DNA from: Nemertoderma westbladi
Lineage: Eukaryota; Animalia; Xenacoelomorpha
DNA length: 64,000 bases
Assembly (NCBI GenBank): GCA_032718475.1
Contig: JAUCBJ010002550.1
Location: 1-64,000, forward strand
Direction: 5' to 3'
How positions within the stretch are numbered: the first letter of the stretch is position 1; each line of letters starts with the position of its first letter. Position numbers and translations under genes: made by a program. The notes under the pieces are model-generated. The model did no database searches. It had not been told where the DNA came from and worked only from the letters and a program-made list of their open reading frames with translations. Shown in pieces: positions 21,505-45,395 of this stretch.

Positions 21505-21630
21505 TATAGAATTATATTCCCTAAATGCCGTGGATTTTCAAAATTTTATTTTATTCGGATTAACTTTGTAAAGATTGCTTTGAGTTCTCATTCGTATTGG
21601 TTCTATCTATTATGCATCTATCGGTCAAGT

Positions 21631-21717
21631 GGTTCAGTAGCTCAGTCGGTAGAGCGTTGGAAATTATGTGTGTAGTAGGTATCGAGTTCGAATCCTAGTA
21701 AGTGCGAATTATTTTTT
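21631..21717 (+). ncRNA. tRNA-derived Pol III-type cassette inside the LTR (not a functional tRNA)
   Basis: A box/D-arm TAGCTCAGTCGGTAGAGC at 21638-21655, B box GAGTTCGAATCC at 21684-21695, T6 run at 21712-21717. Acceptor and anticodon stems do not pair. Confidence 0.7.
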
Positions 21718-21913
21718 GTGCAGAATTTCAACTCATTTAAATTAACCGCTACAAATTAATTGCATTTATCTGTACCAATGAGACTGTAGTTATTTGATTG
21801 TAACCAATGTCGTGCAAGTTATATATTAGCTGGACCAATAGCTATCTTTAAAACCTTGTTAGAACCTATAGAACAATCGAGAATTTTCTCGATTGATTGC
21901 AGCACAAATTTGG

Positions 21914-22038
21914 TATATAAAGGTGCGATTTCGTTCATTAGTTCACTACTCAATCACTTCAATATTCACATCATTATTCTGTCGTGCTTAGTTTATTCTC
22001 AGATTACATTGTATTATAATTGTATCTTCTGTAATAAA
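21914..22038 (+). promoter_or_regulatory. Putative LTR Pol II core promoter and poly(A) signal
   Basis: TATATAAA at 21914-21921 downstream of several CCAAT boxes (about 21775-21840). Initiator-like TTAGTT about 25 bp later, AATAAA at 22033-22038. Confidence 0.5.
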
Positions 22039-24218
22039 GTCAGAATATTCCCTCAGTTTTCTATCTGTTTTACTATGGTTTCACTACGGTGAACAAACTC
22101 AGGGACAGGATGGCCAGCTAGAGATCGGGCCGCAGCAATGAACGGGAACATCACGGGAATGTAGACGAGAGACAACCCGCAATACCTTTAGAGTTATTCG
22201 CCCATCGCCTGAAAGGTTAGACAGCGTTTGATCCTTGCTACCTAAGTGTAAGACCAAAAGATCAACAGGTAGAAGTAGTGACACGCTGTAAGCCCAAAAT
22301 TACATCATAGGGACTGTACTGTCTTGATTCAGGAAAACCCACAGTAGACCTTCACATTCCTACGGGGGGAGAGCGCAGGCAGATACTAGTACGCAGATAG
22401 GACGTAGGCACACCGGTACAAGGCATACACATTGGTTAGGGTGCAGCAAACTGTACGCTTAACTCTTGCTAAGTACAGGTGCGCGTGCGACTATTTGCAG
22501 TACGACAGTGTCCATTGCATTAGAACTTGTAGGCTAAGGGGGTTGCTGTGTTTTCACCTGAATTGGGATTGTACCGTTCAGGCGGTAGGGCAGTTTACAC
22601 TAGGCGCAAATAAATTGAGGCTATCAGGGATATACTAACATCTACCGTGTCCCCGCCAACGCCCTAATAGGAAGTTACCTGGACTACCTGGGTGACTAAA
22701 ATTCTAGATAGGAGCCAGGATAGCTATTAGTACCCGTACGCCTACAGTAGTAAACTAACACATCTCTTCTTAGTATCAGGGACCTGGTACCTAAAATTGC
22801 CGAATTCTGGGCGTAGTATTAACCTTATGCCTGAATTTGAGTCCTGGAAATACGCAAGAGGGGAAGGAACCTTATCATTCGTGAGTATTGGACCTACAAG
22901 TTACAAAATTAGAATATTCGTAAAATGCACACCGTACCCAGTAATTATATATGTGAAGGAGCAAAACTGTTTTGACCGTTCAGAATTAACACACGCGCGT
23001 TAGAAATTATTTACACCTCGAAATATATAAAATTAACTTAGTCCGTACTGTGCTTTGCCCGCTAGTTAGACATCTCCAAATCTCTGCCTGTACCTAGCTA
23101 GCGTCCCTTCGCCCAACCATATAAATCACACCGCGGCAAAGTATACGAGCCTCTTAGTCCGTCAGTGAGTCAGCCTGATTTTAGGATTCGCTGCGCGGGA
23201 TTTTGTTTTATCGAAGTTTGTCTGCTCGTAGACTGTTTTCTGCCTCACCGGTTATAAGAGATCGATACTGCAATATATTCGCTTACTTAGGGTTTACTGT
23301 TTTGGTGAGAAGGTCGGATTTATGATTTGATTTACAAACTTTACAGTAGGATATTGCAGGTATTGTTACCGTCTCTTCCGATAGTAGGAATAGGCGTATC
23401 TCTTCAATTAGTAGGAATGTGTTTTACTGAACTACGGTTCGGTAGGACTAAAGTTTTTTGAAAAATTTGTATTTTGAGGTAAAATTTTGTATTTGATTAG
23501 CTAAGTGCTAATTTTTTGAAATAAAATTTGATTTGAACCGCGTGTAAAATATTTTTGGAATTGAATACCGGTGTTTAAAAGGGTTTAAATACCATATTGT
23601 ACCGGTACAAAATTTTCGTAAAGTAAAACCTAACTCTTTTGTTTTTCAGGATTCAGAACTCATTTCTAGACTGTAACGGGAGCAAGACCGTGTTTAGCAA
23701 GTTTGGGAGATAGATAACTCAACAACTTTGGTTGGGAAAATCGCGTTTCGTCCGCAACGTTAAAAACGGAAAGGTTCACGTTCGGTTTGTATCTGGGAAT
23801 CTGTTTTTCTGGAGAATTATTGGAGTGGGTGAGTTCGAAAAGTTGCATAAATAAGTTAGGCATTACCGTATTAGTTAAAATTATTGTGGGTTCCACTGTC
23901 TCAAGTATTTATGCATTCCGTACGATTTCTTTGTTCATTGCTGAATTAGTCCGTATTATTGTATTTAATTTACCTTTTGATAACGCATATCGTTATCCGA
24001 TTTATTTGTTGTAAAATTGGCCGCTAGGCTAATTTTATTATATACTTATTCCGTGACATTTATTTGCTGTAAAATTGGCCGTTTAGGCTAATTTTATCCA
24101 TCTGCTATAAAATCGGCCGGTAGGCTAATTTTATAAGACTGTAATTAGTACCGTTTTGTATAAATACGGTAAAACTCGATACTTTGACACTCACTTTACT
24201 TGACTTACAACTACCGAA

Positions 24219-27200
24219 ATGAGTGACAAACAAGACTATACGAAGAACACACAAACCGACTATGACTCGTGTGACGGAGATAAGTCAGCAGCGGAAGAAC
24301 AACAGGGGAAGACTCGCGAGCCTACCGAACCTACACCGTGTGCGTCACCAGTACATCCAACGGGAGTACCGGATGCCGTAGTACGAGGCGACGGCAGGAC
24401 CGAGGACTTTCTAACTGTTCCGCAACCTAGATATAGGGAAACGGAAATGGTAAGTTCAGCAGGAAGCACAGAAAGTGTGGTTAGAAGCGTCGGTGGATAC
24501 ATGGCGCATATTACCAGGAGTATTGGAGAAGGCCAACGCATATTAGACGGGTTGACCGCTCCGATGTCTCGATTCGAGTTCTACACCCTCCAGGTTAGAG
24601 TACAGAGTAAAGTATATAAGTCCGTAGATAATCTAGTTGGCCTACAAGATCTAGCTAGACAGAGACAGGACATGGATACTCAACTTAGAATCCTCGAGAA
24701 ACTAATGATCACTAGAGAGAAACTGATTCAGTTTAAGTCGACGATTAGACAGATACAACAGGAACAAGCGGACCAGTTGTTAGGTGAGTCAGTTTCGGAC
24801 GAATTATTGCAACCCGAGGAAGAACAGGAACTGTACCGACTGGATGGACAATTGAAACATCTGACGGACCACTTACGTATGTGCGGCGAAGACGTCGGCG
24901 ATTTGGAAACCGTGCCGGAATATACGAAAGAAACTTCACCCGTACGAATTGAATCGGCACCGGGAATACTGGACCAATCGTTGGTAAGTATTCGTAGCGA
25001 AATCTGCGAGGGAAGTATAGTCACGTCAGAAGTTGCTCGACAACAGCAAGAATTCCACCGACAACGACAAGAAATGGAAGAACAAGCTCAACTTCTAGTG
25101 ATGCAAGCAGCAGTAGAGGAAGAGAAGCTACGCGTTGCGAATATAGCAAGAATCTCTCATCTACAGGAACAAGCTGAATTAGAAGCAGCTGAAGTAGAAA
25201 GGTTAGAGTTAGACATTGCCCGACAAGCGGCAGCGGCAGCGGCAGAGTCAGAGCGACAAGCGGCAGCGGCAGCGGCAGAGTCAGAGCGACAAGCGGCAGC
25301 GGCAGCGGCAGAGTCAGAGCGACAAGCGGCAGCGGCAGCGGCGGAATTAGAACGAGACAGGTTAGTTTCGGAGGCGCGGGCCGAAATGAAAACACGGCAA
25401 ATAAAGGCTCAATCCGCTATACGACAAGCGGAGTTTGAGGCGCAACGACAACAAACGGAACAACGAGAGAAGACAGCTAAACTTCATTTCGAACTTGAGA
25501 AGAAGGCGAGAGAATTAGCGAACGCTGAGGAAGATCTGGATCAAAGGGCCCGCGATCGTTCGATGAGATCTCGTGACGGACATGATTTGGACCAGTTAGA
25601 GGTAAGACATCGCCAAATTCAGGAACGGAAGAAGGAAGGAAGCGTAGGAGCACCCGGACGGGAACGACAATTAGTAAAGGACGTGTGTCAACGATTCCCA
25701 CAGGTAACTCATATGTTTGCACCGGTTACGACTAAGGAACCTGTTTCGATTGCGGGTAGTAGTGATATTTCTCCTATCCATGGTGCGACGGAACACAGGT
25801 TTGTTATTCCGGACGAGTTTATACCGCCAAGAGCAACGTCGTCGCCCATTCCGAAAGTCAAGGTAAGTAACCCACCGATTACGGATCGTAGTAGTTTATT
25901 AACCGGACCCGCACTACTGACGACAAAACAGGTGAGTCCACCTTTGACACCTAAACCCGTTACACATTACGCTTATCCAATGACGTTTCGACCTACAAGG
26001 CCAGTTGTTTCAAATGCTGTCATTCGCCCACCGAACCAGTTTACATCGCAATCTACGACTTCGAGGAAGACTTGTGAGCCTACCGAACAACGAAGAACAG
26101 TGGAGACGCGACCATTCAACCAGTTTACATCGCAATCTACGACTTCGAGGAAGACTTGTGAGCCTACCGAACAACGGAGATCAGTGGACGATGTTCCGAA
26201 ACGAACCGTTAGAATTCGTACGACGCAACGAACGCGAGCACGTCGACCACCATATCCAGATGATAGTAGTACTTCGAGCGAATCGGATTACCCGAAACGC
26301 GAGGTATTTAGAACAGGGGCGGCCGATGAATATAAACGCGAGCGTTCAGACAACTCTTTTGCAGACAATCCTCCACAGAATACACCGACACAGAAGGCGT
26401 TACCACCAGCGGGCGCGATCGGTGCACAACAGTTCGCCGACATTGTCAACAAGTTGGCCCGGATTGAGGAACGTCTGGAGGAAGGTTACACCGACAGTTC
26501 GAGAAATTCCGAATTCGAACACAATAGACACCCGAAGGGACCACAAAGACCAGTACCTTCAAACCCCACAAGCGATCAGGGAAAAGCGCCAAGAAGGGAG
26601 AACATCAACCAGACTACCAACCAAGGACGCGAAACTCTGAACGTTGCCGAGGAGATAGCGAAATTCGCAGCCAGACAAGGATTGCCGGTACAACAACCAC
26701 CGAAGTTTTCCGGTAGCTCAAAACACTGGCATACCTTCGTAGACTATATCGAATCCCAGATCGCCGTGTGCGCCTTTACATCACGGGAGAAGTTCAATTA
26801 CCTGCTCCAAACGTTGTCAGGAGAACCTAAACGTTTGGCGGAGACCTTCGTCGGTGTACCAGACGCTTTCGAACTAGCGTACGATCGTTTGACTTCGATA
26901 TACGGAGGTACAGTGAGTATGGCCAGGTCAGTAATAGAAGAACTCTGTAAGGGAGGGGCTATCACTAAACCCGTCGACTTACTAAAACTGGCTGACGAGA
27001 TTAAGAACGCTATCACTACCTTAAGATCAATTGGACAACTTGATTACGGGAATACCCCTACAGTTCTATTAAAGATAATAGGACGACTCCACCATCGACT
27101 CCGTCGGGAGTGGAGGAAGGTCGAATACCAGCGGGAGGAGCGGGGAGGATTCTTAAAATTAGAAGATGTGTACCTTTTAATATCCAGGGAGGCGGTAGTA

Positions 27201-29030
27201 GAAACTCGATCTAACTATACCGACCAGCACATCGTGGCAGAAGGGATCACACTGCCATCCTCCAACCGACAAAAACCCCAGACAACATCCACAAAGACGG
27301 CCACTTACGCCACACCGACGGAATCACGACAATTCTCAGACGGTAATAGAGTATCTGCGCCCATTGGGACGAAACAGACGAGACAGCAACTCAGCACCGA
27401 CTTCAACGGCTGCCAATACTGCGAACATCTAGGTAAGCGGTATATTGGTCACAAGTTACGAGGTTGTCGACAATTTCGCGAGTTGAACTCGGAAGAACGA
27501 CGGCTGCAGATACGGCCACTGGACTCTTGTTGGCGGTGTACGCGACACGGACACGTCCGTAAGGATTGCCCAAATACCGACACTTGTCCATCCTGTGGAC
27601 GCAACCACGACATTCTGCTCCACACAGACAGCCACACGCCGACGAAACGCTTCGCCAGGGAACACCCAGAAGCAGCAGCGAGATGTGATGCGGCTTACCG
27701 AAAACGAGAATCGAAAACGACTCCAACCTTCGTGACCCATATTGAGGATTGCTTCTCAGAACAATCCGGATCGTCGGACGAAGAATCAGAAGACGACGAT
27801 GTATATTCCAATGGAGACGAACAACCGTCGATCGCGCTTCTAACCACTGACCAACTGAAGGGATTCAGTGTAATCCCGATTAAGATCACTGGCACAAAAG
27901 GGAGTAAGAGGATTTACGCGATTCTAGACTCAGCCTCATCTCACAGTTACGTGGATGAAAAGATAGCTGACGTCGTAACGGATCTCAGACAAGGTAAACA
28001 CGTCAGTTATACAGTAAGTAGTATGCACGGCCAGCGTGCAATACCAGTGACACGAGTTAAGTTGGACTTAGACTCTCTTCTTCCAAAATCGCAACACAGC
28101 GAGAGGGAGAGGTCTTTGTTACCCTTTAGAGATCTAACCTTTGCGGCCACGAAGGACTTTAGTAACCTACTAGGTCCAGTGCCGGAACAATCTCTGGAGG
28201 ACCGTAAGTATTTCAGACACCTTGGTGTACCTGAATGTCCTGTCAATTATAGATCGGTAGCAATGCTGATCGGGACGGACCAATTCAACCTACATCAGGT
28301 GTGGGAAACCAGACCATCGGCAGTTGTAGCGGGAAACGCATACGCCTGCAGAACGCCGATAGGGTGGTATACTCGAGCGCCTGTGCGCACACTAGACGTA
28401 AGTGACGAGGAAGACGATGTACAGAGTACATGTAGTTTATTAACTACAAATTCAATTCATTCCTTTTCACACGACGTGAACCATACTACACTACAGTCGA
28501 CAAAACACGACAGACGTGTAACTAGTATGATAAGTCACAAGGAGCAGCTAACCCACAAGGTGAGTTTAGAACTTGGGGAGAAGACGAGTCAGCTGGAGAT
28601 TCCATCGACGACAGATGATAGGCTTGCGAGTCTACCTACCCCAATAACCTCAACAGTGCCCGTCGATATCGATGATGACGCGTTGAGAAATCATCAGTTG
28701 GAACAAGCCGCCTTGGACAAAGAATTAACGGAGAAGACTATCAGGTGGTTAGAACAAGATACAGCTGAACCTGGTAGCTACGAACCTTGTATGTCGGAAC
28801 AGGAGAAACAATCTCTGAAGATCATGGAAGATACTATCCGCCAGACGAAAGACGGACATTATGAGGTAGGGATGTTATGGCGTAGCCAAAGTCCTAAACT
28901 TATAAACAACTATCCACTGGCTTTAAGACGTCTACACTCAATCCGACAACGTCTATTAAAAGACGAGAAAGCCCATCTGCAGTACAACACTCAGATGGAG
29001 ACGTATTTGACGAAGGGATACGCTATCTGA
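24219..29030 (+). CDS. BEL-1 Gag-protease polyprotein (ends at an in-frame TGA just before RT)
   Basis: Coiled-coil N-terminus and BEL gag core (PPKFSGSSKHW...EKFNYL). Three BEL-type Cys/His fingers (CQYC..H..C, CWRCTRHGHVRKDC, CPSCGRNHDILLH), protease ILDSAS, pre-RT motif YEVGMLW...NNYPLALRRL. Confidence 0.93.
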   Translation: MSDKQDYTKNTQTDYDSCDGDKSAAEEQQGKTREPTEPTPCASPVHPTGVPDAVVRGDGRTEDFLTVPQPRYRETEMVSSAGSTESVVRSVGGYMAHITRSIGEGQRILDGLTAPMSRFEFYTLQVRVQSKVYKSVDNLVGLQDLARQRQDMDTQLRILEKLMITREKLIQFKSTIRQIQQEQADQLLGESVSDELLQPEEEQELYRLDGQLKHLTDHLRMCGEDVGDLETVPEYTKETSPVRIESAPGILDQSLVSIRSEICEGSIVTSEVARQQQEFHRQRQEMEEQAQLLVMQAAVEEEKLRVANIARISHLQEQAELEAAEVERLELDIARQAAAAAAESERQAAAAAAESERQAAAAAAESERQAAAAAAELERDRLVSEARAEMKTRQIKAQSAIRQAEFEAQRQQTEQREKTAKLHFELEKKARELANAEEDLDQRARDRSMRSRDGHDLDQLEVRHRQIQERKKEGSVGAPGRERQLVKDVCQRFPQVTHMFAPVTTKEPVSIAGSSDISPIHGATEHRFVIPDEFIPPRATSSPIPKVKVSNPPITDRSSLLTGPALLTTKQVSPPLTPKPVTHYAYPMTFRPTRPVVSNAVIRPPNQFTSQSTTSRKTCEPTEQRRTVETRPFNQFTSQSTTSRKTCEPTEQRRSVDDVPKRTVRIRTTQRTRARRPPYPDDSSTSSESDYPKREVFRTGAADEYKRERSDNSFADNPPQNTPTQKALPPAGAIGAQQFADIVNKLARIEERLEEGYTDSSRNSEFEHNRHPKGPQRPVPSNPTSDQGKAPRRENINQTTNQGRETLNVAEEIAKFAARQGLPVQQPPKFSGSSKHWHTFVDYIESQIAVCAFTSREKFNYLLQTLSGEPKRLAETFVGVPDAFELAYDRLTSIYGGTVSMARSVIEELCKGGAITKPVDLLKLADEIKNAITTLRSIGQLDYGNTPTVLLKIIGRLHHRLRREWRKVEYQREERGGFLKLEDVYLLISREAVVETRSNYTDQHIVAEGITLPSSNRQKPQTTSTKTATYATPTESRQFSDGNRVSAPIGTKQTRQQLSTDFNGCQYCEHLGKRYIGHKLRGCRQFRELNSEERRLQIRPLDSCWRCTRHGHVRKDCPNTDTCPSCGRNHDILLHTDSHTPTKRFAREHPEAAARCDAAYRKRESKTTPTFVTHIEDCFSEQSGSSDEESEDDDVYSNGDEQPSIALLTTDQLKGFSVIPIKITGTKGSKRIYAILDSASSHSYVDEKIADVVTDLRQGKHVSYTVSSMHGQRAIPVTRVKLDLDSLLPKSQHSERERSLLPFRDLTFAATKDFSNLLGPVPEQSLEDRKYFRHLGVPECPVNYRSVAMLIGTDQFNLHQVWETRPSAVVAGNAYACRTPIGWYTRAPVRTLDVSDEEDDVQSTCSLLTTNSIHSFSHDVNHTTLQSTKHDRRVTSMISHKEQLTHKVSLELGEKTSQLEIPSTTDDRLASLPTPITSTVPVDIDDDALRNHQLEQAALDKELTEKTIRWLEQDTAEPGSYEPCMSEQEKQSLKIMEDTIRQTKDGHYEVGMLWRSQSPKLINNYPLALRRLHSIRQRLLKDEKAHLQYNTQMETYLTKGYAI

Positions 29031-32000
29031 ATGACTAACCCGGAGCGAGTGACCGACCAAACGTATTACTTGCCACATCACTACGTGAGACACCCCGACA
29101 AACCAGACAAAGTACGTGTAGTCAATGACTGTGCGGCTCTGTTTGAGGGAATGTCCCTCAATAGTGAGTTGATGGATGGACCGAACATGAATAATTATCT
29201 TATGGGGGTGATTATGCGCTTCCGTCAGCGTCAAGTAGCCTTTACTTGCGACGTTGAAGCGATGTTTCACCAAGTAAAAGCGTTAGAGCGAGACAGAGAC
29301 AGTTTGCGGTTCCTCTGGTATCCGGAAGGAGATTTAAGTCTACCACCGGCGACTTACCAAATGCAAGTTCGCGTTTTCGGTGCCAGAGACAGCCCAAATT
29401 GTACGATGTACGCCCTAAAGCAGGCCGCTAGGGATCAGAAACATCTATATGACCCAGAGATAATTAGAATTGTGGAGCGTGACTTTTACGTTGATGACGG
29501 ATTACAGAGTTGCGACACAGTAGAACGTGCTACAACAGTAGCACATCAATTACGGGACTGCTTGGCGGGCGGAGGTTTTAACCTCACCAAATTCGCCTCA
29601 AACAGTGCCGAATTAGTAGACTCATTCGGAACTACTGAGCGTGGAGGTGGTGACATAGACCTAGAGTTCGAACCACTACCGACGACCAAGGTGTTGGGGC
29701 TCTTTTGGGACCCAAACACAGACAACTTTCGAGTGAAGGTGAGACTGGACAGTCAAGGGAACACACTGACAAAGAGATCATGCTTGTCAAAGTTGAGCCG
29801 ATTGTTCGATCCGTTAGGATTCATCAGTCCAGTGATACTGCAAGCCCGCATTTATATGCGCAGTATATGGAAGGATGGACTAACTTGGGACGAGCCGATC
29901 TCATCAGACCAAGTGGACTTATGGAAGACCTGGGAGGCGGAATTATCTTCGCTAGAGGATTATTCCATACCCAGGGTTTACTTTCCATTGCAAAGTACAT
30001 TTCCTGACAACTTGGAACTACACTGTTTTTCTGACGCCAGTGACAACGGTTTTGGTGTGGCAGCGTACCTGCGCAGACAAGTAGAATCAGACGAGTTCGA
30101 TGTTTCGCTCATTACTTCTAAGGCTAAGACCATGCCTACTAAGTATATGACGACACCACGAGCCGAGCTACAAGCCGCAACCCTGTCAACCACCATCGTG
30201 AACCTCATACAGACAGAACTACAGTCGAGTTTACAGATATTTTATTGGACTGACGCGACGTTGGTTTTATTTTACATAAACAACGACACACTCGAATTCA
30301 AGACATTCGTTGCTAACCGTCGCGCGGAAATTCTAGACCGTTCAATAAAAGGGGATTGGCGACATTGTCCCGGACCACAAAACCCAGCTGATATTGCGTC
30401 GCGAGGAATGATGCCTGAGGAATTCTGTAAACCGGAGAACAAAGAGTTTTGGCAACACGGACCCCAGTTCTTGCAGAAATCGACACAAGATTGGCCTCCG
30501 TTATACGACAACAAGTCCAACACTATTCCCAAGGACGCCGAAATCAAGAAACCAAAAAAGGGGAAGACAAAGAAAAAGACGACGGCGGCGAAACTCAAGA
30601 AAAAACCGAAGGCGAAATGGAAAGATATAACTTCAAAGGTCAAGAGAGGAAGACTTGCGAGCCTTTCTACACCAGACATATCGCCAGACGGTCAACCAGA
30701 CACGTTACCAGACGGTCAACCAGACACGTTACTAGACAGCCAACCAGACATTTTGCCAGACATATCACAAAATGTTCCACCAGACGCTAGTAACACACTG
30801 ACAAACAGTAAAGCCGCAGTTTCCCTATTGGAGCGGCCTTCTATTGACAAACAACCAGATACGTTACTAGACGTATCGCCAGACACATTACTAGACAGTC
30901 GACTAGACACTAGTAATGTATTGACTAACAATAAAGCCGCAGTTTCCCTATTGGAGCGGCCTTGTATTGACAAACTACCAATTTTGACACACTTGAGCAA
31001 CCATAAGCACGGTGAAACCTCATGTATTACAGATGTGGGTAGTACCTACGCTAATGTAAATACAGGTGTTACTTTGCGCTCAAGAGACATACCGAACTTG
31101 CAACCTATGTTGAAACCTGGGATTAATGTCGGCAGGAAAATAAGTTTACCGAAACCTGCTGACCCCATAGAGTTCAAACCACCATTAACGATCGACTTAC
31201 AAAGTACCGACAATCAAGGTAAGAAGACAAAGAAGGACAAATTACTTGTAGACCCCGACGGATCAACAGTCAACAAGGGAATACTTACCGGCGGACCCGT
31301 GGGCCCTTCTAGTAATTCAAAACCTTCCAAGTTCTCCATTGACTTACCTGATGACGTCACAAATACTTACGTCGACCGTATCGTAAACTTAACAGACTCT
31401 TGGTCAAACGCTTGCCGAAAATTAGCGTGGATTGTACGTTTTGTACAATACGTTAAAGGCAAACGTGACTTTACACGTCGACTTACATTGGCTGAGATTG
31501 ACAGGTGTGAGATTAAATTAATTCGCCATTACCAACTGCGATATTTCGCGCGCGAATTCACATCTATAAATCAAGGTCAACCAATCAAGTCACCGATACT
31601 GAGTTGGAGTCCGATTATTTATAATGGCTTGATTTGTCATAAATCTCGGCTTCAAAACATTGACTTTAACACAAACTTTAGGTACCCAATAATAATACCG
31701 CAACATCACGAACTACAACGTGCAATGATACTGGACGCACATTTACATCTGAAACACGCTGGAAGACACCACTGTCTTTCCTACTTACGTACTAGATTTG
31801 TATTAATTAGACCCAGTAAAGCATTAAGTTCAGTGACACGTACGTGTATTATTTGTAAAAAGGTACATTCTAGAATAGGTACCCAAGAAATGAGTGAACT
31901 ACCACAAGCACGACTTCAAGCATTCAGACCACCTTTTACAGAGACTGGAATTGATTGCTTTGGTCCCATACATACGAAACGTGGACGTATACTAGTAAAA

Positions 32001-32384
32001 CGCTGGGGACTGATTTTCACATGTATGTCCAGTAGGGCAGTTCACATTGAACGTGTGATGGATCTTTCCACCAACGCGTTTATACTAGCACTGCGGCGAT
32101 TTATCGCTAGACGCGGACTAGTAAAATGCTTGTACTCAGACCAAGGGACAAACTTTGTTGGTGCTCGGAATGAGATTGCTAGAGCCTTTAAGAAATTAGA
32201 TCATGATCAAATCTCGAACGAACTGCAACCTCACAAGATTGTTTGGAAGTTCAATCCTCCAGATAGTCCTTGGAGAGGCGGAGTCTGGGAGAGACTGATT
32301 AGATCTATCAAAGACAGCAATGGCAAAGGTCATTCCAGTAAACCACATATTAACAGACGACCAACTGACAACATTGTTTGTTGA
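29031..32384 (+). CDS. BEL-1 RT-RNase H-integrase (same frame as gag, frameshifted near 32310)
   Basis: YYLPHH, KVRVVND, SLNSELMDGP, DVEAMFHQV, FYVDD, FDPLG, HCFSDAS, TPRAELQAA, WTDA, NPADIASRG. Integrase HHCC, GIDCFGP, SDQGTNFVGA, GGVWERLIRSIK. Confidence 0.94.
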   Translation: MTNPERVTDQTYYLPHHYVRHPDKPDKVRVVNDCAALFEGMSLNSELMDGPNMNNYLMGVIMRFRQRQVAFTCDVEAMFHQVKALERDRDSLRFLWYPEGDLSLPPATYQMQVRVFGARDSPNCTMYALKQAARDQKHLYDPEIIRIVERDFYVDDGLQSCDTVERATTVAHQLRDCLAGGGFNLTKFASNSAELVDSFGTTERGGGDIDLEFEPLPTTKVLGLFWDPNTDNFRVKVRLDSQGNTLTKRSCLSKLSRLFDPLGFISPVILQARIYMRSIWKDGLTWDEPISSDQVDLWKTWEAELSSLEDYSIPRVYFPLQSTFPDNLELHCFSDASDNGFGVAAYLRRQVESDEFDVSLITSKAKTMPTKYMTTPRAELQAATLSTTIVNLIQTELQSSLQIFYWTDATLVLFYINNDTLEFKTFVANRRAEILDRSIKGDWRHCPGPQNPADIASRGMMPEEFCKPENKEFWQHGPQFLQKSTQDWPPLYDNKSNTIPKDAEIKKPKKGKTKKKTTAAKLKKKPKAKWKDITSKVKRGRLASLSTPDISPDGQPDTLPDGQPDTLLDSQPDILPDISQNVPPDASNTLTNSKAAVSLLERPSIDKQPDTLLDVSPDTLLDSRLDTSNVLTNNKAAVSLLERPCIDKLPILTHLSNHKHGETSCITDVGSTYANVNTGVTLRSRDIPNLQPMLKPGINVGRKISLPKPADPIEFKPPLTIDLQSTDNQGKKTKKDKLLVDPDGSTVNKGILTGGPVGPSSNSKPSKFSIDLPDDVTNTYVDRIVNLTDSWSNACRKLAWIVRFVQYVKGKRDFTRRLTLAEIDRCEIKLIRHYQLRYFAREFTSINQGQPIKSPILSWSPIIYNGLICHKSRLQNIDFNTNFRYPIIIPQHHELQRAMILDAHLHLKHAGRHHCLSYLRTRFVLIRPSKALSSVTRTCIICKKVHSRIGTQEMSELPQARLQAFRPPFTETGIDCFGPIHTKRGRILVKRWGLIFTCMSSRAVHIERVMDLSTNAFILALRRFIARRGLVKCLYSDQGTNFVGARNEIARAFKKLDHDQISNELQPHKIVWKFNPPDSPWRGGVWERLIRSIKDSNGKGHSSKPHINRRPTDNIVC

Positions 32385-32877
32385 AATCGAGGCAATACTA
32401 AATACTAGACCAATAGTATTAGTACCCGATGACAAACAATCTCAGTTTGCTTTAACACCAGCACACCTGCTTATGCAGGCACCGACCACATTGACGCCGA
32501 TTTCCACTCCAATGGAAAGCGATAGCTACGGTAGAAAAGCGTGGAAAATCACGCAACTACTAGCTAACAAATTCTGGGAAATATGGCAAAACCATTATTT
32601 GCCCTCTATTTCTGCCAGAACAAACTGGTACAATAACACCCGCGCATTAAAGCCGGGAGATCACGTGCTGTTGGCAGAAGTGAATCTAAAAAGACGCTTC
32701 TGGATAACAGGTGTCATTTTAGCCACACATCCATCTATGGATGGAGTGACAAGAACTGTGACGGTACGGACAATTGACGGTCGTACAGTAGACAGACCGA
32801 CTCAACGTCTCGTACTTCTTGAAGAGACTCGTAACGAGTCTGGAGACTACAAATCTCCACCTAATACTAGTAAATAA
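32320..32877 (+). CDS. BEL-1 integrase C-terminal part (after the frameshift)
   Basis: EIEAILNTRP, LTPAHLL, FWEIWQNHYL, W..GVI....PSMDGVTRTV.VRT: the typical BEL integrase C-terminus. Confidence 0.92.
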   Translation: MAKVIPVNHILTDDQLTTLFVEIEAILNTRPIVLVPDDKQSQFALTPAHLLMQAPTTLTPISTPMESDSYGRKAWKITQLLANKFWEIWQNHYLPSISARTNWYNNTRALKPGDHVLLAEVNLKRRFWITGVILATHPSMDGVTRTVTVRTIDGRTVDRPTQRLVLLEETRNESGDYKSPPNTSK

Positions 32878-33538
32878 TTAGGAGTTTACAAATAGATTTC
32901 CACGTACCTGTACACCGTAGTAAGGACAGCGGTAGAATTCCATTGTCTTTATATGTGAACATTGAGGGTAGTACCCTTATGTGTCACATAGGAGCGGGAT
33001 TTGTAGGTATAAGAAATGGAATTCTACTTGGAACTCACAATATTGAGACATTTTCGAAATTTTAGACAATCCATTTGGATTTGAAAAAATTTTAAAATTT
33101 TCTCCAGTGAATAGATTTCAGGGTACAGTCGGGTGGAACTTAAAATTAGAGAAACAAGAGGAAGACTTGCGAGCCTTTCTTAAAATTTAATTAAAATTTT
33201 ACACGGTCTTGTTTCAATAAGTTACATCAAATAAATAGACTCCCCTATATTTATTACTAATTCTTGACTGCTTATTTTCTGATAATAGTTTGGGATCAAA
33301 AAGTGAGTATTTTAGACTCACAGCCAGTTTAGCCCAAATTCGTTTTTATTTCGGCAAAAAATTTTAGATAAGAAGCAGCGTGTCATTAAAGAAACCCTAG
33401 ATCTTAGGCTATGGGTAGGAGGTTAGAGCGTTGTCGAAGCCCAAAAGGCAGACGAAACTCTCACGTCTCCTCACAACTAACCACAAACTCTGTTGTATTC
33501 CCTCTAGTAGTAATGATTATGTAACTACACCTCTAATT

Positions 33539-35241
33539 ATGGAGAAAGGGATACAAAGAGAGCCGAGATGGGGATATGATATCCAAGAGGAGGCGGCAGC
33601 TTCATTCGAACGATTTGGAGCAAAAGACTACACTATATTTGGTATAAAGGAATTATCAGAAAGTACAGCGAAGCTCGCAAAGACAGCAATGCCTTTACTC
33701 GAGCAGGATTTAGTATATTTCGAGACGTGTATCTTCGCTGTGCGGGATCTCTTATCGAAAGACCATCTATGTTTACATTGTTACCCTATGAAGGAGAACG
33801 TATCGTGGAGATTACGGATGAATCACGGCAGACGCGTGCGCCTATCGGTCACCTTGGTGATGAATTCGAAGTAACTACTACGATCGCCGACGATCCTTTA
33901 GAGGAACTTCTTGAGATTGAAAGGAACCTCCCGAAGAAATCTCAGACGGAGATTCGACAACTTGAAGCAACAGATGCTATAGTTTGTATACAACCTTCAG
34001 AAACCTACCAACCCATAGACCCAGATGATTACGATTATAGTATGGGAGGAAGCGCTCGACCGATTGGAGATTTTATATACGAACGAGTGTGGTACCCTGC
34101 CAATACGATGTGTAGTAAATGTGGCGTCGCTGGACATCATATGACAAAGTGCAGTGGAAAGCACATTACTACGACTCAGCTAATCTGTGGATGGTGTGGG
34201 GATCAAGGGTCTCATACCTTTTATACTTGCTGGAGATTTATGGCTCAATGTACTTACTGCAATATAAAGGGACATCGAGCATCTGAATGCCAACTGAGAG
34301 ACATACCTTATGAACACGAATCTGTAAAACTCGTGAGGAAGTTATTTGATGAGTGGGAAGATTTAGCCGACGAACATGTATCGGCACAGAGAAGACGGTT
34401 TCCGATGAGAGCGCATCTCGGATTTTGGGCGGTAAATCCCCAGACGATGATGTCGGAAGGATACATCTCCGCTATGCCTCAATATGACGAACTTATCGAG
34501 GTTGTCGATATTTTGCCCCACGACAGCGGATTCCGAGTGGTGCGCGAGTATCTGTTACAAATTCACCCGGATAACAAAAACACGTGGAATTTTCAGAAAG
34601 TCGTTAATCGGATTACGTATGGTGAATTCGATCGTTTCCGAACTGAAAGGCGGAACAAGGGAGCTTGGTTAACCGTCGCATGGGCGTACCGAGCCGCGTT
34701 TTACCACAAACGTATACGAGCGAGCGTATTCGAGGAAGAAGAGGTCCTAGAGGCGACGAACATATCAGCCACTCCGGTTGCGCCGTCTGCACGTCACCCT
34801 CGGGAGGACGGGCAGGGTAGGATCATACGGGTCCAGAAAGTGGGCCAACAATTGAAGAAAATTATTAATGTAGAAGAACGCAAGGGAGTTGAGCCGACCA
34901 TTCGAGTTACTCGGGATACGGTATCACTTCCAAGAGAACCAGTAGGAGGATCGGGACATACACCAGCTGATCAACAGGGGGCGCAAGCTACTCTCGGGTC
35001 TGCGTCGTCCGCTTCTCACGCGTTCCCAGACGTTCTACCAACTGTAGTGACGACTGATCGGTCACGAGGAATTGGTCGAGGTTTTGGGATGCCAAATAGA
35101 CGAATTTGCGAGGAAATAGTCGCACCGTCTCTCAACGTCCCAAGTAAACCAGTGACTCGCCCCACGAGTCCCATATCGCGAGCAAAGTCACCTGTGCGCA
35201 GTTTTCGAGGACGCGGCAGGGCTCGATCAACTAAACGATAA
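33539..35241 (+). CDS. BEL-1 ORF3: triple CCHC zinc-knuckle protein with an Arg/Pro-rich tail (probable frameshift near 33727)
   Basis: CSKCGVAGHHMTKC, CGWCGDQGSHTFYTC, CTYCNIKGHRASEC; ends RGRGRARSTKR. The ATG at 33539 joins the 33727 frame if 2 nt are removed at GAGACGTGTAT. Confidence 0.75.
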
Positions 35242-36145
35242 AAGGGAGGGCAAGGGTGGACGGAAGACTCGTGAGCCTTTCTTATGATTTGTGATTTATT
35301 TGAATTATATGTTTTATATTTAGAAAGTTTGTATTCTGAAAGGGACTCATATTTAGTAAAAACTTATATTTTATATTTGTGCTTATTCCAAACTTATGCA
35401 ATTTGTATTGTTCCGAATTTATGAAATTTAGAAAGTTTAGAAGGAACTTATATTTGAAAGATTTATGTTTCATATTTGAGATGCAAAGGTTTATATTATT
35501 CTAAACTTATGCAGTTTATATCTATATTTAGTAAGACTACCCAAAAGAGAGTTTATATTTGTAAGAATTTATATTTATATTTGTAATTATTTCGAACTTA
35601 TACAATTTATATTATTCCAAACTTATGCAATTTGTATTGTTCCGAATATTATGCAATTTATATTTTATAAGCAGTATTTGTACCTAAAGAGAAAGTTTTA
35701 TAGACAGAAAATTTTGTGCTCAGAAAGACTCATATTTGTAATTATTCCAAACTTATGCAATCTACATTTAGGTACGAAAGTATTTGTAATTACTTGAATT
35801 TATGCAATATTTGGGATGCAATAGTAGATGGAAGACTCGCGAGCCTTTCTTATTGTTTTCATTTATTTGTATTTGTAATTGTTTGAATTTATGCAATATC
35901 TGAGATGCAATAGATTTATATTGGTGAATTTAATTTAGATTTATATTGTACTTACTTAGCAAAGCCTTAAATACGTAAAGTTTGAATTTGTAATTATTTT
36001 GTATCGAATCATTACGTAGAAAGGAAGTATTGTTTGAAATTTAATTGTAAATATGTAAGTACGCCCTAAGTATTTTATAGTTTGATTGATTATTGGTGAA
36101 AACCGTATATTTTATGCACGATAATATCCTGTTTTCATGGAGCGG

Positions 36146-36286
36146 TATAGAATTATATTCCCTAAATGCCGTGGATTTTCAAAATTTTATTTTATTCGGA
36201 TTAACTTTGTAAAGATTGCTTTGAGTTCTCATTCGTATTGGTTCTATCTATTATGCATCTATCGGTCAAGTGGTTCAGTAGCTCAG
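36146..36286 (+). repeat. 3' LTR of BEL-1, part 1
   Basis: Matches 21505-21645; preceded by a short purine-rich GGAGCGG (weak PPT). Confidence 0.92.
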
Positions 36287-37500
36287 CCCAAAAACAGTTG
36301 GCCTCGAGGTGCGTCCTAGGTGCGTCCTAGGCTAAGCTGAGGTCCGTCCTAGGCAGAGGGCTAAGGTACGTCCCAGGCAGAGACAAGTTTGATTGGTTGT
36401 TCCACTTGCTAGCTAGGGAATTCCTTCTTGAATCCGTCATAGTAAGCGAGGCCTGTGATTGGCTAATTCAGAATTAATGTGCTGTTTGTTATTGTAAATT
36501 TTCTGGATGCCGAGAATGGATTGTAAAGTAGTATTAATTAAGAATTAATTCAAATGTAACTAAATATTACGTTACGGAAAAAATTTACAAAAAATATGTG
36601 AATGCTCCATTTTATATTTTTTATTTGTATTCTTGTTTAAATCAAACAAACAGGTAAATAATGAGTTGTGCGGTGTAGTGTAAATTATCATTGTTTGGTT
36701 GTGTGGCAACTGGAGTAGCAGGCTGGGTATTTGGGTAGCCCCAGTTGTGCGGGCCTGGACAGGGTTTCCATCCAATGCTAACATGTATTGCAACTGTATA
36801 ATGTTTAGAATGCCAGTGAAACAAAATAGGAGGGTCCTTAGTAGTCAACTGGAGTGGCAGCCAATATCGTAAATATTCATTCCAGAACATGTATTTATTT
36901 AACATGGGTTATATGCAGTTCATTAGTTGCACAGAAAAGGAGACACATAGTATGTTGAAGGTGGAGTTGATTCTATTGGTTGTCTGACTCGACGGCTGGG
37001 ATATCCCAGTGAGCGTATACAATAGCAGGGCTTCCCTCTAATAATGGTATCACAATGCTACTATAGTATATTATTTTTCATGGCTTGCGTTTATGTGCCT
37101 ATTAATCAGTAGTATTTAGTATTGTAACTGTAACAACTGTGTTGTTAATAATATTTCTTATAATTGTATATATTTGCTGCTACCTGTAATACATTTTACA
37201 ACTTTAATTATTTAATTAATTAGTTAACCTAATTTTAACTTATTAATTGGATATTCCTGTTTTGATTTCTACATAAAATAACCGTATATAAATTGCAGGT
37301 TTAGTTACATTTTAATTTTATAGTTTCGGTTTGTAATTTTTCACTTTGTCATACAAACTTAAATTTGTAAAAAAAGCTCTGTAAGTTAAATACAGTAATT
37401 TTAAAAAATAAGCAATGCATAACACAGATACACAAACAGGGGGGGGGGGGGGGGGGGCAGTGGAAAAGTGTACCCGGGCCGCTATGTCCTAAATTAGAGA

Positions 37501-37575
37501 TCAAGATGCCATGAAGCAAGTTATTTTGCTATTACGACTCCTAATAGCAAAATAACTTGCTTCATGGCATCTTGA
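37501..37575. repeat. Perfect 34-bp inverted repeat with a 7-nt spacer
   Basis: TCAAGATGCCATGAAGCAAGTTATTTTGCTATTA (37501-37534) and its exact reverse complement (37542-37575). Confidence 0.95.
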
Positions 37576-37816
37576 CGCAGTGGATAGCTGCCTTGTATTG
37601 TACATAGCCAACCAGTCTCTCTCTCTATCTGGGTAAACCAAGCACATACTGTAGACTCCATTATGTGGTTTACTTGTGCTAGTAGTAGATGCCACCAGGT
37701 CAAGGCTTGGTTATTGGCCTTATTGGTCAAGGCCTGCTTTACTCTGTATACATTTGACTTATCACAGCAGACTCAGAAATTAGTCATCAATGTAACATAA
37801 ATGATATTATATTCAG

Positions 37817-39034
37817 GGTGTTCGGACACTTCCCCCCCGGACACTTCCCCCCCGGACAGTTCCCCCCCCCGCTCAAGTAGGACACTTCCCCCCCGGACAC
37901 TTCCCCCCCGGACAGTTCCCCCCCGCTCAAGTAGGACACTTCCCCCCCGGACACTTCCCCCCCAGACACTTCCCCTCCCCCCCGCGGACACTTCCCCCCC
38001 GACTGTTCTTAACTTCGCACATTCGTATTTTTCATTTTGTAAGGTAAACGGACCGCTTGTATCCAGATAAGTTGTATCCAATTTTCCTTACGTAGCTCAG
38101 ATAGTGATCTTTTGCATCCTGATTTTACATTTTATATCCAAGTTTTATTTATGGGTTTTATCAATGCAATTACATAGTATTGTTTGCTAATCTTTAAACG
38201 ATTAATTATATTAGATGACCTATAAATTCCATCCACCGAATGATATACTGTTTTTATTAACTATAGAATTATAATAATTAATTGTTTTAATTATAGGTAT
38301 TATTATGTAATAGTCTTCTTCAAATTGTAGCAGATGGGGATGAATATTATTGTTGCAATCAAAATTATACCTCTCTAGGGTAAAATCGACATGCGTCGAC
38401 CTGTATTCTGTGTTCAGCATTACATACAGTATTAATATACATATTACTACTATACATACTATATAGATATTATACACACTACATATTAAATTTCCTGGTT
38501 ACTTGCGATATTTTTAATAGGATTTTGTTGAATTATATAATATTGTAGTAATTTATATATTAAATTGGTTAACATTCAATACAGCTCCTACTTTAGGCTT
38601 AGTCAATTTATTATCTGATGATACAAACATGAATTAGTTATTTCAAAGTGGTCTTAAGTCTTTCACCACGGGCACTCAGCGAAATACCGGGTTATGGGGG
38701 CGATAACCCCCAAGAAATGAAGCGGGGGGGTTTGGGGGCGGCAGCCCCCAAGAAAAGAAGCGGGGGTTTGGGGGCGGCAGCCCCCAACAAAAGAAGCGGG
38801 GGTTTGGGGGCGGCAGCCCCCAATTAAAAGAAATTAAAAGAATTAAAGGAATTAAAAGAGAAACAAACAAAATTTGACTATAAAAATGTTTCTTTTATAA
38901 TTTTGAAAAAACTTGTCTAGATACAACTTGTCCTGTAACCATCTTTAACTTTTGTTTATTGCTTTGATGCACCCAGATTAATTTTAACACTTTAACTGGG
39001 GGGGAAGTGTCCGGGGGGCAAGTGTCCTAGATCC
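37817..39034. mobile_element. Non-autonomous Mutator-like (MULE) element with repeat-built TIRs
   Basis: 9-bp TSD TATATTCAG at 37808-37816 and 39035-39043. Ends GGTGTTCGGACACTT... and ...AAGTGTCCTAGATCC. Tandem GGACACTTCCCCCCC units at the left end, inverted copies at the right end. Confidence 0.75.
38695..38822. repeat. Four tandem GC-rich hairpin units (about 37 bp)
   Basis: TTGGGGGCGGCAGCCCCCAA three times plus one variant, separated by AAGAAGCGGGGGT. Confidence 0.85.
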
Positions 39035-40059
39035 TATATTCAGTTATCTGGTCTTTTGTGGTATTCCACTGTCATTTAATAGCTACTTATTGGTCTTTAA
39101 ACAATGTCGAAGTCTCACCATTTTAAAGGATTGAAGTTTTACCGCGACAAGTTCATAGCACTTGCTAACAGCCCGAGTGGGAGTAGAAATCTGTACGTAA
39201 CTTTACAGCGTTTGATAACATAACTTTACAGTGTTTGAACCCATAACTTCTCAGTTTTTGATCCCATAACTTTAGGCCTAAAGTACCGTTTATCATTTAT
39301 TATATTACAATTTTACCGATGTACAATTTTACCGTAATGTAAATAGTTTTTATTATATTACAATATAATAATATTCTGTATTTTAGAAAAGACCTACGAT
39401 TTTATAATAGCTCAATTTATTATAATAGCTAATATGATTTCAATATAATGGTATGTATAACGGTATACCTCTTTTTGTGCCATTTTGGTACATTGTTTTA
39501 ATTACATAAACGTTTCACTGCAGTTCATTTGTGTAATGAGTAATGATTTATTTAATCAATAAATATTTATCTACTAATTATTAAAAGCAAAGAAATATGT
39601 AATATTCAAATTTATATTTTCCCTTAATTTCAAACCCTCTTTTTTATTTTCCTTCCCTTTCGTCTTTATTATCTTTTTTAACGCAACATGTGGGCGTGGG
39701 GTGGGCCTTCGCGCCGCACAAGAGTGAGTTAGTAAGCCTAGATAACAATATATTTAGCACCACCTAGTGGCGGGCCAAGGAAATTGTGCGACGCCAGAAA
39801 CTGCCTCATTTATTTGAGACCAAAGATTAGACCGACTGACGACAGACCGTCAGACAATCAGACAGACCTACACGAGGTTGAGATAGTGATACTTGTAAAC
39901 TAAGATCTCTAACTTTCTTGACTTTTTCTTTCCCTACCCTTCTTTTGCTTTTCTCCTTTCCTTTCTTTTCCCCTTTTCTCTTGCCCCTCTTTTTCCTCCT
40001 TTGTTATAATTTTTTCTTCCCCCCTCCGATCAGGCTATCTTACCCCAGCCCTAGCTCAG

Positions 40060-41824
40060 TTGGTAGAGCGTTGGAAATTATAAGTGTAGTAGGTATCGAG
40101 TTCGAATCCTAGTAAGTGCGAATTATTTTTTGTGCAGAATTTCAACTCATTTAAATTAACCGCTACAAATTAATTGCATTTATCTGTACCAATGAGACTG
40201 TAGTTATTTGATTGTAACCAATGTCGTGCAAGTTATATATTAGCTGGACCAATAGCTATCTTTAAAACCTTGTTAGAACCTATAGAACAATCGAGAATTT
40301 TCTCGATTGATTGCAGCACAAATTTGGTATATAAAGGTGCGATTTCGTTCATTAGTTCACTACTCAATCACTTCAATATTCACATCATTATTCTGTCGTG
40401 CTTAGTTTATTCTCAGATTACATTGTATTATAATTGTATCTTCTGTAATAAAGTCAGAATATTCCCTCAGTTTTCTATCTGTTTTACTATGGTTTCACTA
40501 CGGTGAACAAACTCAGGGACAGGATGGCCAGCTAGAGATCGGGCCGCAGCAATGAACGGGAACATCACGGGAATGTAGACGAGAGACAACCCGCAATACC
40601 TTTAGAGTTATTCGCCCATCGCCTGAAAGGTTAGACAGCGTTTGATCCTTGCTACCTAAGTGTAAGACCAAAAGATCAACAGGTAGAAGTAGTGACACGC
40701 TGTAAGCCCAAAATTACATCATAGGGACTGTACTGTCTTGATTCAGGAAAACCCACAGTAGACCTTCACATTCCTACGGGGGGAGAGCGCAGGCAGATAC
40801 TAGTACGCAGATAGGACGTAGGCACACCGGTACAAGGCATACACATTGGTTAGGGTGCAGCAAACTGTACGCTTAACTCTTGCTAAGTACAGGTGCGCGT
40901 GCGACTATTTGCAGTACGACAGTGTCCATTGCATTAGAACTTGTAGGCTAAGGGGGTTGCTGTGTTTTCACCTGAATTGGGATTGTACCGTTCAGGCGGT
41001 AGGGCAGTTTACACTAGGCGCAAATAAATTGAGGCTATCAGGGATATACTAACATCTACCGTGTCCCCGCCAACGCCCTAATAGGAAGTTACCCGGACTA
41101 CCTGGGTGACTAAAATTCTAGATAGGAGCCAGGATAGCTATTAGTACCCGTACGCCTACAGTAGTAAACTAACACATCTCTTCTTAGTATCAGGGACCTG
41201 GTACCTAAAATTGCCGAATTCTGGGCGTAGTATTAACCTTATGCCTGAATTTGAGTCCTGGAAATACGCAAGAGGGGAAGGAACCTTATCATTCGTGAGT
41301 ATTGGACCTACAAGTTACAAAATTAGAATATTCGTAAAATGCACACCGTACCCAGTAATTATATATGTGAAGGAGCAAAACTGTTTTGACCGTTCAGAAT
41401 TAACACACGCGCGTTAGAAATTATTTACACCTCGAAATATATAAAATTAACTTAGTCCGTACTGTGCTTTGCCCGCTAGTTAGACATCTCCAAATCTCTG
41501 CCTGTACCTAGCTAGCGTCCCTTCGCCCAACCATATAAATCACACCGCGGCAAAGTATACGAGCCTCTTAGTCCGTCAGTGAGTCAGCCTGATTTTAGGA
41601 TTCGCTGCGCGGGATTTTGTTTTATCGAAGTTTGTCTGCTCGTAGACTGTTTTCTGCCTCACCGGTTATAAGAGATCGATACTGCAATATATTCGCTTAC
41701 TTAGGGTTTACTGTTTTGGTGAGAAGGTCGGATTTATGATTTGATTTACAAACTTTACAGTAGGATATTGCAGGTATTGTTACCGTCTCTTCCGATAGTA
41801 GGAATAGGCGTATCTCTTCAATTA
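40060..41824 (+). repeat. 3' LTR of BEL-1, part 2
   Basis: Matches 21646-23410 with only a few substitutions visible. Confidence 0.92.
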
Positions 41825-41967
41825 ATAATACACCCTGTAGTTACCACGTAGAACCTATACTATACTATAATACATCCTGTAGTTACCACGTAGAGCCTAT
41901 ACTATACTATAATACATCCTGTAGTTACCACGTAGAGCCTATACTATAATACATCCTGTAGTTACCA
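41825..41967. repeat. Last ~3.5 monomers of the satellite (array boundary)
   Basis: Same core resumes after the TSD and ends at ...GTTACCA (41967). Confidence 0.95.
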
Positions 41968-45285: not shown

Positions 45286-45395
45286 GCTATTAAATGAGTG
45301 TTTTGCTACGTCATGTGGTAATCGACTATCGACAACAACCACAAACTATTAAATTTAGAGTCTTTTACCACAGACGCATATGGAAATCTATCTCA

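Follow-up and report, generated by a model that had tools for sequence, protein, structure and literature searches.

A BEL/Pao retrotransposon with a dispersed motif

The first 64,000 nucleotides of contig JAUCBJ010002550.1 of Nemertoderma westbladi (GCA_032718475.1), hereafter the window, contain on the + strand a BEL/Pao retrotransposon, identified by Pfam matches to DUF1759 (3e-11), Peptidase_A17 (8e-43) and DUF5641 (2e-22). Between its long terminal repeats (LTRs) the element encodes a Pao-type Gag and a Pol in the order protease, reverse transcriptase (RT), RNase H and integrase, followed by a third open reading frame, ORF3 (Table 1). Its internal region also holds ten copies of a 20-nt motif, and this motif, which is real, structured and element-specific, is the subject of this report.

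Table 1. Coordinates of the element's features and of the ten motif copies within the window
Feature	Position	Strand	Remarks
5' LTR	21505..23410	+	1906 bp; target duplication ATAAT in 37/42-bp satellite
Candidate self-primer 11-mer in LTR	22353..22363	+	exact complement of the 11 nt past the 5' LTR; priming role putative; chance 0.0004 within LTR
Primer-binding position	23411..23421	+	complementary to LTR 11-mer
Putative GT..AG intron	23829..33507	+	one contig, run X3, depth 211, 29 nt on its shorter side; would excise gag-pol and 7 of 10 copies
gag-protease frame	24219..29030	+	long N-terminal extension, DUF1759, three Cys/His knuckles 27411-27623; in-frame stop 29028-29030
RT-RNase H-integrase frame	29031..32384	+	~265-aa insertion separating RNase H from integrase; reading frame broken near 32300-32384
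Integrase C-terminal part (DUF5641)	32299..32877	+	Pfam
Short ORF, 111 aa from ATG	33539..33874	+	just past splice acceptor, overlaps ORF3 in another frame; no Pfam match
ORF3	33769..35241	+	490 aa from first ATG; three CCHC-type knuckles 34111-34290, RG-containing basic tail
3' LTR	36146..41824	+	broken by 3.77-kb insertion 36287-40051 with 8-bp duplication at its flanks
Motif copy 1	24307..24326	+	loop CGCG; Gag N-terminal extension
Motif copy 2	26065..26084	+	loop TGTG; Gag N-terminal extension
Motif copy 3	26149..26168	+	tandem duplicate of copy 2
Motif copy 4	28617..28636	.	inverted; YGYG loop on +, G.U replaces A.C; between protease and RT
Motif copy 5	30648..30667	+	loop TGCG; Pol insertion
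Motif copy 6 (new)	31290..31309	+	loop CGTG; compensatory C8-G13 and G4-C17; Pol insertion; E 0.013, rough
Motif copy 7	33160..33179	+	loop TGCG; non-coding spacer between pol and ORF3
Motif copy 8 (new)	33827..33846	+	loop CGTG; compensatory G8-C13; overlap of two 3' frames; E 0.003, rough
Motif copy 9	35262..35281	+	loop CGTG; 3' UTR, 20 nt past ORF3 stop
Motif copy 10	35830..35849	+	loop CGCG; 3' UTR

An exact search for GGAAGACTYGYGAGCCT returned seven matches, all on the + strand between 24307 and 35846, compared with a mean of 0.00 in 100 dinucleotide shuffles of the window, which was used on both strands as the background for the motif scans. These are the seven 17-mers listed in the original prediction, and the related form that it had placed at 28620-28633 is likewise present, as part of the 20-nt site 28617-28636. 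Allowing three mismatches adds the site at 28620 on the - strand and another at 33827 on the + strand, where 0.10 would be expected; the former is better described as an inverted copy, scoring 23.5 bits on - versus 18.2 on +. The copies at 26065 and 26149 form part of a single 84-bp tandem duplication, with exact identity extending 31 nt to the left and 11 nt to the right, so that the seven copies represent six independent sites. This pair aside, the flanks are unrelated beyond 0-7 nt (3-14 of 30 left-flank positions identical), and two sub-lineages of copies have 4-7 extra 3' bases in common. The claim that only two positions vary is correct for the 17-mer of the seven and fails for the stem-variant copies at 33827 and 31290, and the proposed AGCCU(UUC) 3' end applies to the four of the seven that continue with TTC, the other three having ACC.

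Apart from the motif, no dispersed 16-mer family in the internal region of the element exceeds three members (the next has three), and none in either the neighbouring BEL or the neighbouring gypsy element exceeds two. The LTRs, the 5' leader, the satellite and the window's other retroelements contain no copy. Successive copies lie 84-2468 nt apart with a median gap above 1 kb, and only one pair is in tandem. The N-terminal extension of Gag holds three of them and the insertion between RNase H and integrase two; one lies between protease and RT, another in the spacer that separates pol from ORF3 and another in ORF3 itself, and the remaining two (35262 and 35830) are in the 3' untranslated region (UTR), where the motif had indeed been reported to extend. 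Among the seven coding copies two reading phases occur (phase 1 for GKTREP and RKTCEP, phase 0 for GRLASL), as had been noted, and hence the constraint acts on the nucleotides, with copies having settled where the protein tolerates them. Their coding location had been described as low-complexity linkers; lineage-specific insertions is the better term, since the linker between RNase H and integrase that contains 30648 and 31290 is ~300 aa long versus a median of 44 in 264 of 265 Pol relatives. None of these 265 relatives contains more than one motif-like peptide of a kind.

Compensatory changes in the arms of the motif

All ten copies form five Watson-Crick pairs (G1-C20, 4-17, G5-C16, C7-G14 and 8-13) around a YGYG center with guanine at loop positions 2 and 4. 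Pair 6-15 is a non-Watson-Crick purine-pyrimidine combination in every copy, A.C in nine and G.U in 28617, and C.A+ is described as isosteric with G.U and mutually replaceable in the part of the literature cited (PMC5769748). On the + strand pair 2-19 is G-C in three copies and G.U in six. Two of the Watson-Crick pairs change identity while remaining paired: U-A at 8-13, the pair in eight copies, is replaced by G-C in 33827 and by C-G in 31290, and A-U at 4-17, the pair in nine, by G-C in 31290. The YGYG-loop hairpin with a constant A-C mismatch that had been proposed is thus supported, and by compensatory changes in copies that the original prediction had missed.

A covariance model built from the seven copies only, and run over both strands of the 64 kb, ranks 28617, 33827 (E 0.003) and 31290 (E 0.013) next, followed by a doubtful site at 31761 and then by background, the best site outside the element having an E-value of 0.49. 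A sequence-only model missed 31290 and placed 33827 at an E-value of 6.7; a pairing-blind weight matrix scored 28617, 33827 and 31290 all above the best outside site (24.4, 21.7 and 16.3 versus 12.8). Each of the three retains pairs 1-20, 4-17, 5-16, 7-14 and 8-13, and the chance that the core changes would form complete restored pairs is ~0.037 for 33827 and ~0.005 for 31290. The look-alike at 31761..31780 (+), with E-values of 0.08 in the seven-copy covariance model and 1.3 in another scan, has a perfect stem and an off-pattern loop and lies in the integrase zinc finger; we regard it as doubtful and have not counted it.

A descriptor consisting of pairing rules alone, with no stem sequence, gave ten matches on the + strand, all in the element, versus 0.013 per shuffle, and on the - strand only the mirror images of the two CGCG copies; the descriptor was written after 28617 and 33827 had been seen, and 31290 is independent of it. 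Neither relaxing it pair by pair nor rebuilding the model on ten copies produced any further copy. Covariation of the stem, suggested earlier as a check, scored 0.25 versus 0.157 +/- 0.038 in shuffles and at most 0.125 in slid controls; 6 of 500 shuffles scored as high, a count that is not to be taken as a probability. The compensatory changes are our strongest result: they support the hairpin and speak for base pairing within a structure rather than for a mere word in duplex DNA, and the arms probably pair in some molecule.

ORF3 and a putative spliced message

Given that ORF3 has no hydrophobic segment, it is not env-like. Its Pfam hits are confined to zinc-knuckle models below their cut-offs and include nothing of the VANC family, the Atlas gave only CCHC protein leads with scores <0.9 and nothing for residues 240-390, and the PDB yielded no relative (best E 0.28). 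Two protein searches and the metagenome contigs yielded no relatives, and a single-sequence structure model reached a pLDDT of 35 and was unusable.

In run X3 one contig joins 23828 to 33508; the donor reads GTGAGT and the acceptor is rich in pyrimidines. The joint is absent from X1, X4 and X5. Read depth in X3 rises up to the element's A-richest 30-mer (30550), falls after it and rises once more towards the 3' end, a profile that would fit oligo-dT-primed sense RNA. Third ORFs of LTR elements are, in the portion of the source cited, typically expressed from spliced messages (PMC5408684), and a spliced RNA carrying ORF3 is here weakly shown; with the 111-aa ORF just past the acceptor, it could be bicistronic. 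A possible further intron, seen by eye with a donor at the LTR end and a pyrimidine-rich acceptor at ~23650 (23360-23650), would remove the primer-binding site from some transcripts.

Architecture of the element and its relatives

The element is young and probably high-copy. Its LTRs differ at four positions and begin and end in TA...TA (21505-21506, 23409-23410 and 41823-41824, given the 5-bp target duplication) instead of TG...CA; the purine tract ahead of the 3' LTR is only ~7 nt long. Without the nested insertion the element measures 16,547 bp, and with 16.5 kb and 1.9-kb LTRs it exceeds the BEL/Pao range of 4.2-10 kb and 0.2-1.2 kb (PMC8742986), a range that is typical rather than clade-defining. 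Its Pol is 39-41% identical to six BEL/Pao Pol proteins, and the closest Pol proteins are 36-45% identical. BEL/Pao elements are described as primed by tRNA at an 18-nt primer-binding site (PMC8742986). The complementarity between the LTR 11-mer, which by eye has an initiator-like context, and the primer-binding position suggests self-priming of the type outlined for Tf1 (PMC4600332).

By eye, the LTR also contains a tRNA-like stretch with an A box, a B box and a T run (21638-21720 and 40052-40135), at which neither ARAGORN nor Rfam made a call. The excerpted account of Helenus describes tRNA-derived LTR sequence (PMC10886601), which this stretch recalls, the present element being of autonomous type. 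The insertion in the 3' LTR splits it exactly at the tRNA-like A box and holds short tandem repeats and a long hairpin (37487-37589). The 37/42-bp satellite array that hosts the element occupies 1-21504 and resumes at 41825; further downstream lie a 68-bp tandem array of ~25 or more copies (43345-45288) and a second, shorter BEL/Pao element on the - strand (47420-52285), CpG-depleted (observed/expected 0.45) and devoid of both a dispersed motif and an ORF3.

Public runs of organism A, drawn from three studies, span the internal region in full; two of them yield thousands of variant contigs, suggesting that the family is high-copy. Family-level evidence on the motif itself is thin. In a diverged member a motif-like stretch lies just past the ORF3 stop, with a preceding flank that matches in 14 of 22 columns only. 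Loose ends and a back-joint of 35858 to 35690 in other members suggest a duplication of the 3' UTR copy, or a different setting for it, in some of them. Of 950 base-change rows, the 40 listed include none in the motif, too few to count as evidence. Two runs show a joint of 28449 to 28620, a low-depth deletion that ends at the inverted copy. Run X5, labelled organism B, contains near-identical low-depth pieces across 23300-36300 (29 of 30 bins), which may come from a close relative, contamination or transfer.

Outside the family, Rfam gave no match at the motif, viral contigs searched for Pol gave no locus, and no antisense guide was found in 21505-36286 besides the copies themselves. Motif matches in viral contigs (2) and metagenome contigs (26) are due to chance, as none of the 28 loci has tblastn similarity to the element's proteins. 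The histone stem-loop, the BANP/Kaiso CGCG element and Smad and p53 sites, compared with the motif by eye, were rejected as counterparts.

A possible self-recognition signal in the element's RNA

We infer that RNA rather than DNA is read, and on the sense strand. The 20-nt self-complementary word would form a small stem-loop on the sense RNA of the element, and an element-encoded CCHC zinc-knuckle protein, most likely ORF3 and somewhat ahead of Gag, would bind it and so mark the element's own full-length RNA for export or packaging. The weak hairpin would be stabilized by the protein together with a protonated A.C wobble, and the knuckles would grip the two loop guanines as the nucleocapsid protein (NC) of HIV-1 does. 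As seven of the ten copies lie in the putative intron, the full-length RNA would carry more bound protein than the ORF3 mRNA. ORF3 had been named the obvious candidate, and by analogy it is plausible as the reader, with its three knuckles and one spliced joint; as regards knuckles, Gag is equally well equipped. To this reading as a whole, in which a CCHC protein of the element (likely ORF3) binds stem-loops of the sense RNA so that full-length RNA is exported or packaged, we assign a probability of about 0.4.

Evidence on the strand of the structure points both ways. On the + strand every loop change is C to T (eight places, the tandem pair counted once) and none is G to A, a bias not expected from strand-symmetric CpG decay; it has a two-sided p of ~0.008 if the changes are independent and of 0.25 if they represent only three events. 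Also in favor of sense, inverted copy 28617 keeps its YGYG on +, and it is on + that pair 2-19 alternates between G-C and G.U. The stems themselves do not decide the matter, because canonical pairs number 65 of 80 on the sense strand versus 69 of 80 on the antisense strand.

Several observations weigh against the proposal of a protein-bound sense hairpin, the near-equal count of canonical pairs among them. Span-limited folding (ViennaRNA) favors the antisense hairpin, with a pair probability of at least 0.9 in six of the ten copies; the sense hairpin reaches 0.6-0.7 in two and at most 0.24 in eight. The sense 20-mers are worth only -0.4 to -4.2 kcal/mol, and 41-nt sense contexts fold no better than shuffles. 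The program has no term for a protonated A.C, and the result still counts against a protein-free sense hairpin, which would need protein or protonation to be stable. The covariation comes from two divergent copies with three compensatory core pairs, and template switching in a quasi-palindrome could be an alternative source of symmetric changes. Copy 28617 is most simply an inverted copy, such as an orientation-independent DNA site would permit. The splice is seen in one contig, its shorter side 29 nt long, aligned at 80% similarity, from a run labelled DNA by guess, and three of the ten copies remain in the spliced RNA. Retroviral packaging signals are usually in the 5' leader, where the element has no copy. 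Gag has three knuckles too, and ORF3 is without homologues in the protein and metagenome-contig searches.

CCHC knuckles usually bind single-stranded nucleic acid, which counts against the idea that the motif is a quasi-palindromic double-stranded DNA site through which an element-encoded protein would exert VANC-like anti-silencing or transactivation, the C/T differences being CpG decay or T mimicking methyl-C. Such a site would agree with the inversion of one copy, with variable loop positions that are the C of two CpGs, and with the gain of copies by tandem duplication (26065/26149; back-joint 35858 to 35690), as is reported for VANC motifs in the portion of the account cited (PMC5735166). 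The CpG observed/expected ratio, here only a proxy for VANC-type loss of methylation, is 0.73-1.53 across the element versus 0.45 in the neighbouring BEL; the contrast is unspecific, however, since the gypsy element is also at 0.99. A dimer reading half-sites gives no reason for positions 8 and 13, or 4 and 17, to change jointly, no G-to-A change is seen on +, and the LTR promoter lacks any copy. Moreover, VANC motifs are described as 8-9 nt long and set in dense non-coding arrays (PMC5735166), whereas here seven of ten copies are coding and they lie up to 2.5 kb apart. We therefore consider a DNA site unlikely. Pairing of the copies with each other, through genomic RNA dimerisation in register or looping of the long RNA with the inverted copy as a strong partner, we hold to be a little less probable again. 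Eight of ten copies would self-duplex at -17 to -24 kcal/mol and the inverted copy would pair with eight others at -22 to -30 kcal/mol, any YGYG loop is self-complementary via G.U, and the 8-13 covariation would be equally expected. Yet the two TGTG copies self-pair at only -8.2, the self-duplex energies are no better on the sense than on the antisense strand, and such pairing needs neither a common sequence nor the retained 6-15 mismatch.

The greater predicted stability of the antisense hairpins, formed in context in six of ten copies, and the G.U at 6-15 in nine of ten would be accounted for if the functional fold belonged to the other strand, be it antisense RNA or the minus-strand cDNA made during reverse transcription, its stem containing G.U (G.T) and its loop reading CRCR. 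Pair 2-19, however, forms in nine of ten copies on the sense strand versus four of ten on the antisense strand, DNA hairpins would be worth only -0.4 to -1.7 kcal/mol, and the sole hint of expression appears to be sense, leaving this explanation slightly behind pairing between copies in our estimate. Alternatively, sense hairpins could be read by a host RNA-binding protein acting in transport, stability or export, inasmuch as only common residence in the element links the motif to ORF3 or Gag, and simple retroviruses have host-read constitutive transport elements, as far as the excerpted source goes (PMC4829213). The lack of an Rfam family match, the cost to the element of an orphan nucleic-acid-binding ORF and the lack of dispersed 16-mer families with more than two members in the neighbouring BEL and gypsy elements make a host reader improbable. 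It is most improbable that the copies are functionless relics, a 20-24-nt cassette recopied by polymerase template switching and tolerated in linkers and UTRs. The sub-lineages that have 4-7 extra 3' bases in common do show copying, and all coding copies are in poorly constrained stretches, but no other word has spread in this way (the next family has three members), the divergent copies retain pairing, loop and mismatch, and palindrome correction would erase the 6-15 mismatch kept in ten of ten.

Comparison with known systems

Three analogies had been offered, namely Rev/RRE, packaging signals and VANC/VANDAL. Dispersed packaging signals prove the best anatomical fit, Rev/RRE agrees in the accessory protein, here from a putatively spliced RNA, and not in the cis element, and VANC is the worst fit because seven of ten copies are coding, the copies are sparse and their arms covary. 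By analogy, the system would work most like dispersed packaging signals combined with a complex-retrovirus layout.

The packaging signals of single-stranded RNA viruses and of hepatitis B virus (HBV) pregenomic RNA are, in the part of the source cited, many short stem-loops, also in coding sequence, with a common loop motif and one protein (PMC6281560). Multiple stem-loops with a common loop are predicted here too, at ten sites, with YGYG in all ten and compensatory pairs. In contrast to those systems, there are ten sites only, with strong stem identity and a fixed wobble, in an LTR retrotransposon, and the putative reader may be an accessory protein rather than a capsid. The loop recalls HIV-1, whose NC knuckles are described as binding two guanines, the second and fourth bases of the tetraloops GGAG and GGUG, in hairpins of 19-20 nt (PMC7599994). 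As in SL3 (GGAG) and SL2 (GGUG), the hairpin here is ~20 nt long, G2 and G4 of the loop are invariant (ten of ten), and CCHC knuckles are element-encoded, in both Gag and ORF3; a similar grip is accordingly conceivable by analogy only. The HIV-1 hairpins, in the portion of their description cited, are clustered in the 5' leader, stable and mutually different, whereas those here are dispersed, near-identical and weak, with pyrimidines at loop positions 1 and 3 and no copy in the leader.

With Rev/RRE, Rex/RxRE and Rem/RmRE (PMC3342944, PMC2577329, PMC7551171), as far as the excerpted accounts go, the element has in common an accessory non-Env protein, which here would come from a putative spliced RNA (one contig), and cis elements that would be mostly intronic, with some in all transcripts as for RxRE. 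The RRE, however, is described there as one structured element of ~350 nt, and here we find ten separate 20-mers and no single large element. ORF3 has zinc knuckles and, unlike Rev, no Rev-type arginine helix. VANC/VANDAL of Arabidopsis, as partly described (PMC5735166), is alike in its family-specific repeated word, its extra element-encoded gene and its gain of copies by tandem duplication, and unlike in that a DNA transposon carries an 8-9-nt double-stranded DNA word in dense non-coding arrays, whereas here the word has 20 nt, is sparse and mostly coding, has covarying arms and forms no dense array. For each of Rev/RRE and VANC we tested one defining feature and did not find it, and so we do not count the element as a member of either class.

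Among the Belpaoviridae (PMC8742986, PMC3118150) the element fits, on the portions cited, in its Gag with DUF1759 and three knuckles, its Pao-type Pol, its LTRs and its 5-bp target duplication. It departs from them in a third gene that is not env-like and in a primer site that looks LTR-self-complementary rather than tRNA-complementary. In the ICTV profile (PMC8742986) the replication of BEL/Pao is termed "poorly understood", and the third genes listed there are env-like only. In the literature, searched without most subscription papers, Repbase and supplements, neither such a motif or self-recognition tag nor a zinc-knuckle ORF3 was found described for BEL/Pao, which does not show that none has been published.

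Implications

Whether all of these traits belong together is doubtful. A "complex" BEL/Pao element of this sort would combine an orphan three-knuckle protein from a spliced gene, ten wobble hairpins in coding linkers and UTRs that this protein recognises and that act as a distributed Rev/RRE-like switch admitting full-length RNA to export and packaging, and tRNA-free self-priming, and we think so full a combination rather unlikely. How LTR retrotransposons distinguish their own RNA from that of the cell, and how they export RNA that retains introns, is poorly known. A 20-nt element with natural variants and two candidate readers is a cheap and direct target for binding assays. If ORF3 is the reader, the accessory export systems of complex retroviruses would have a counterpart in a retrotransposon, assembled from other parts.

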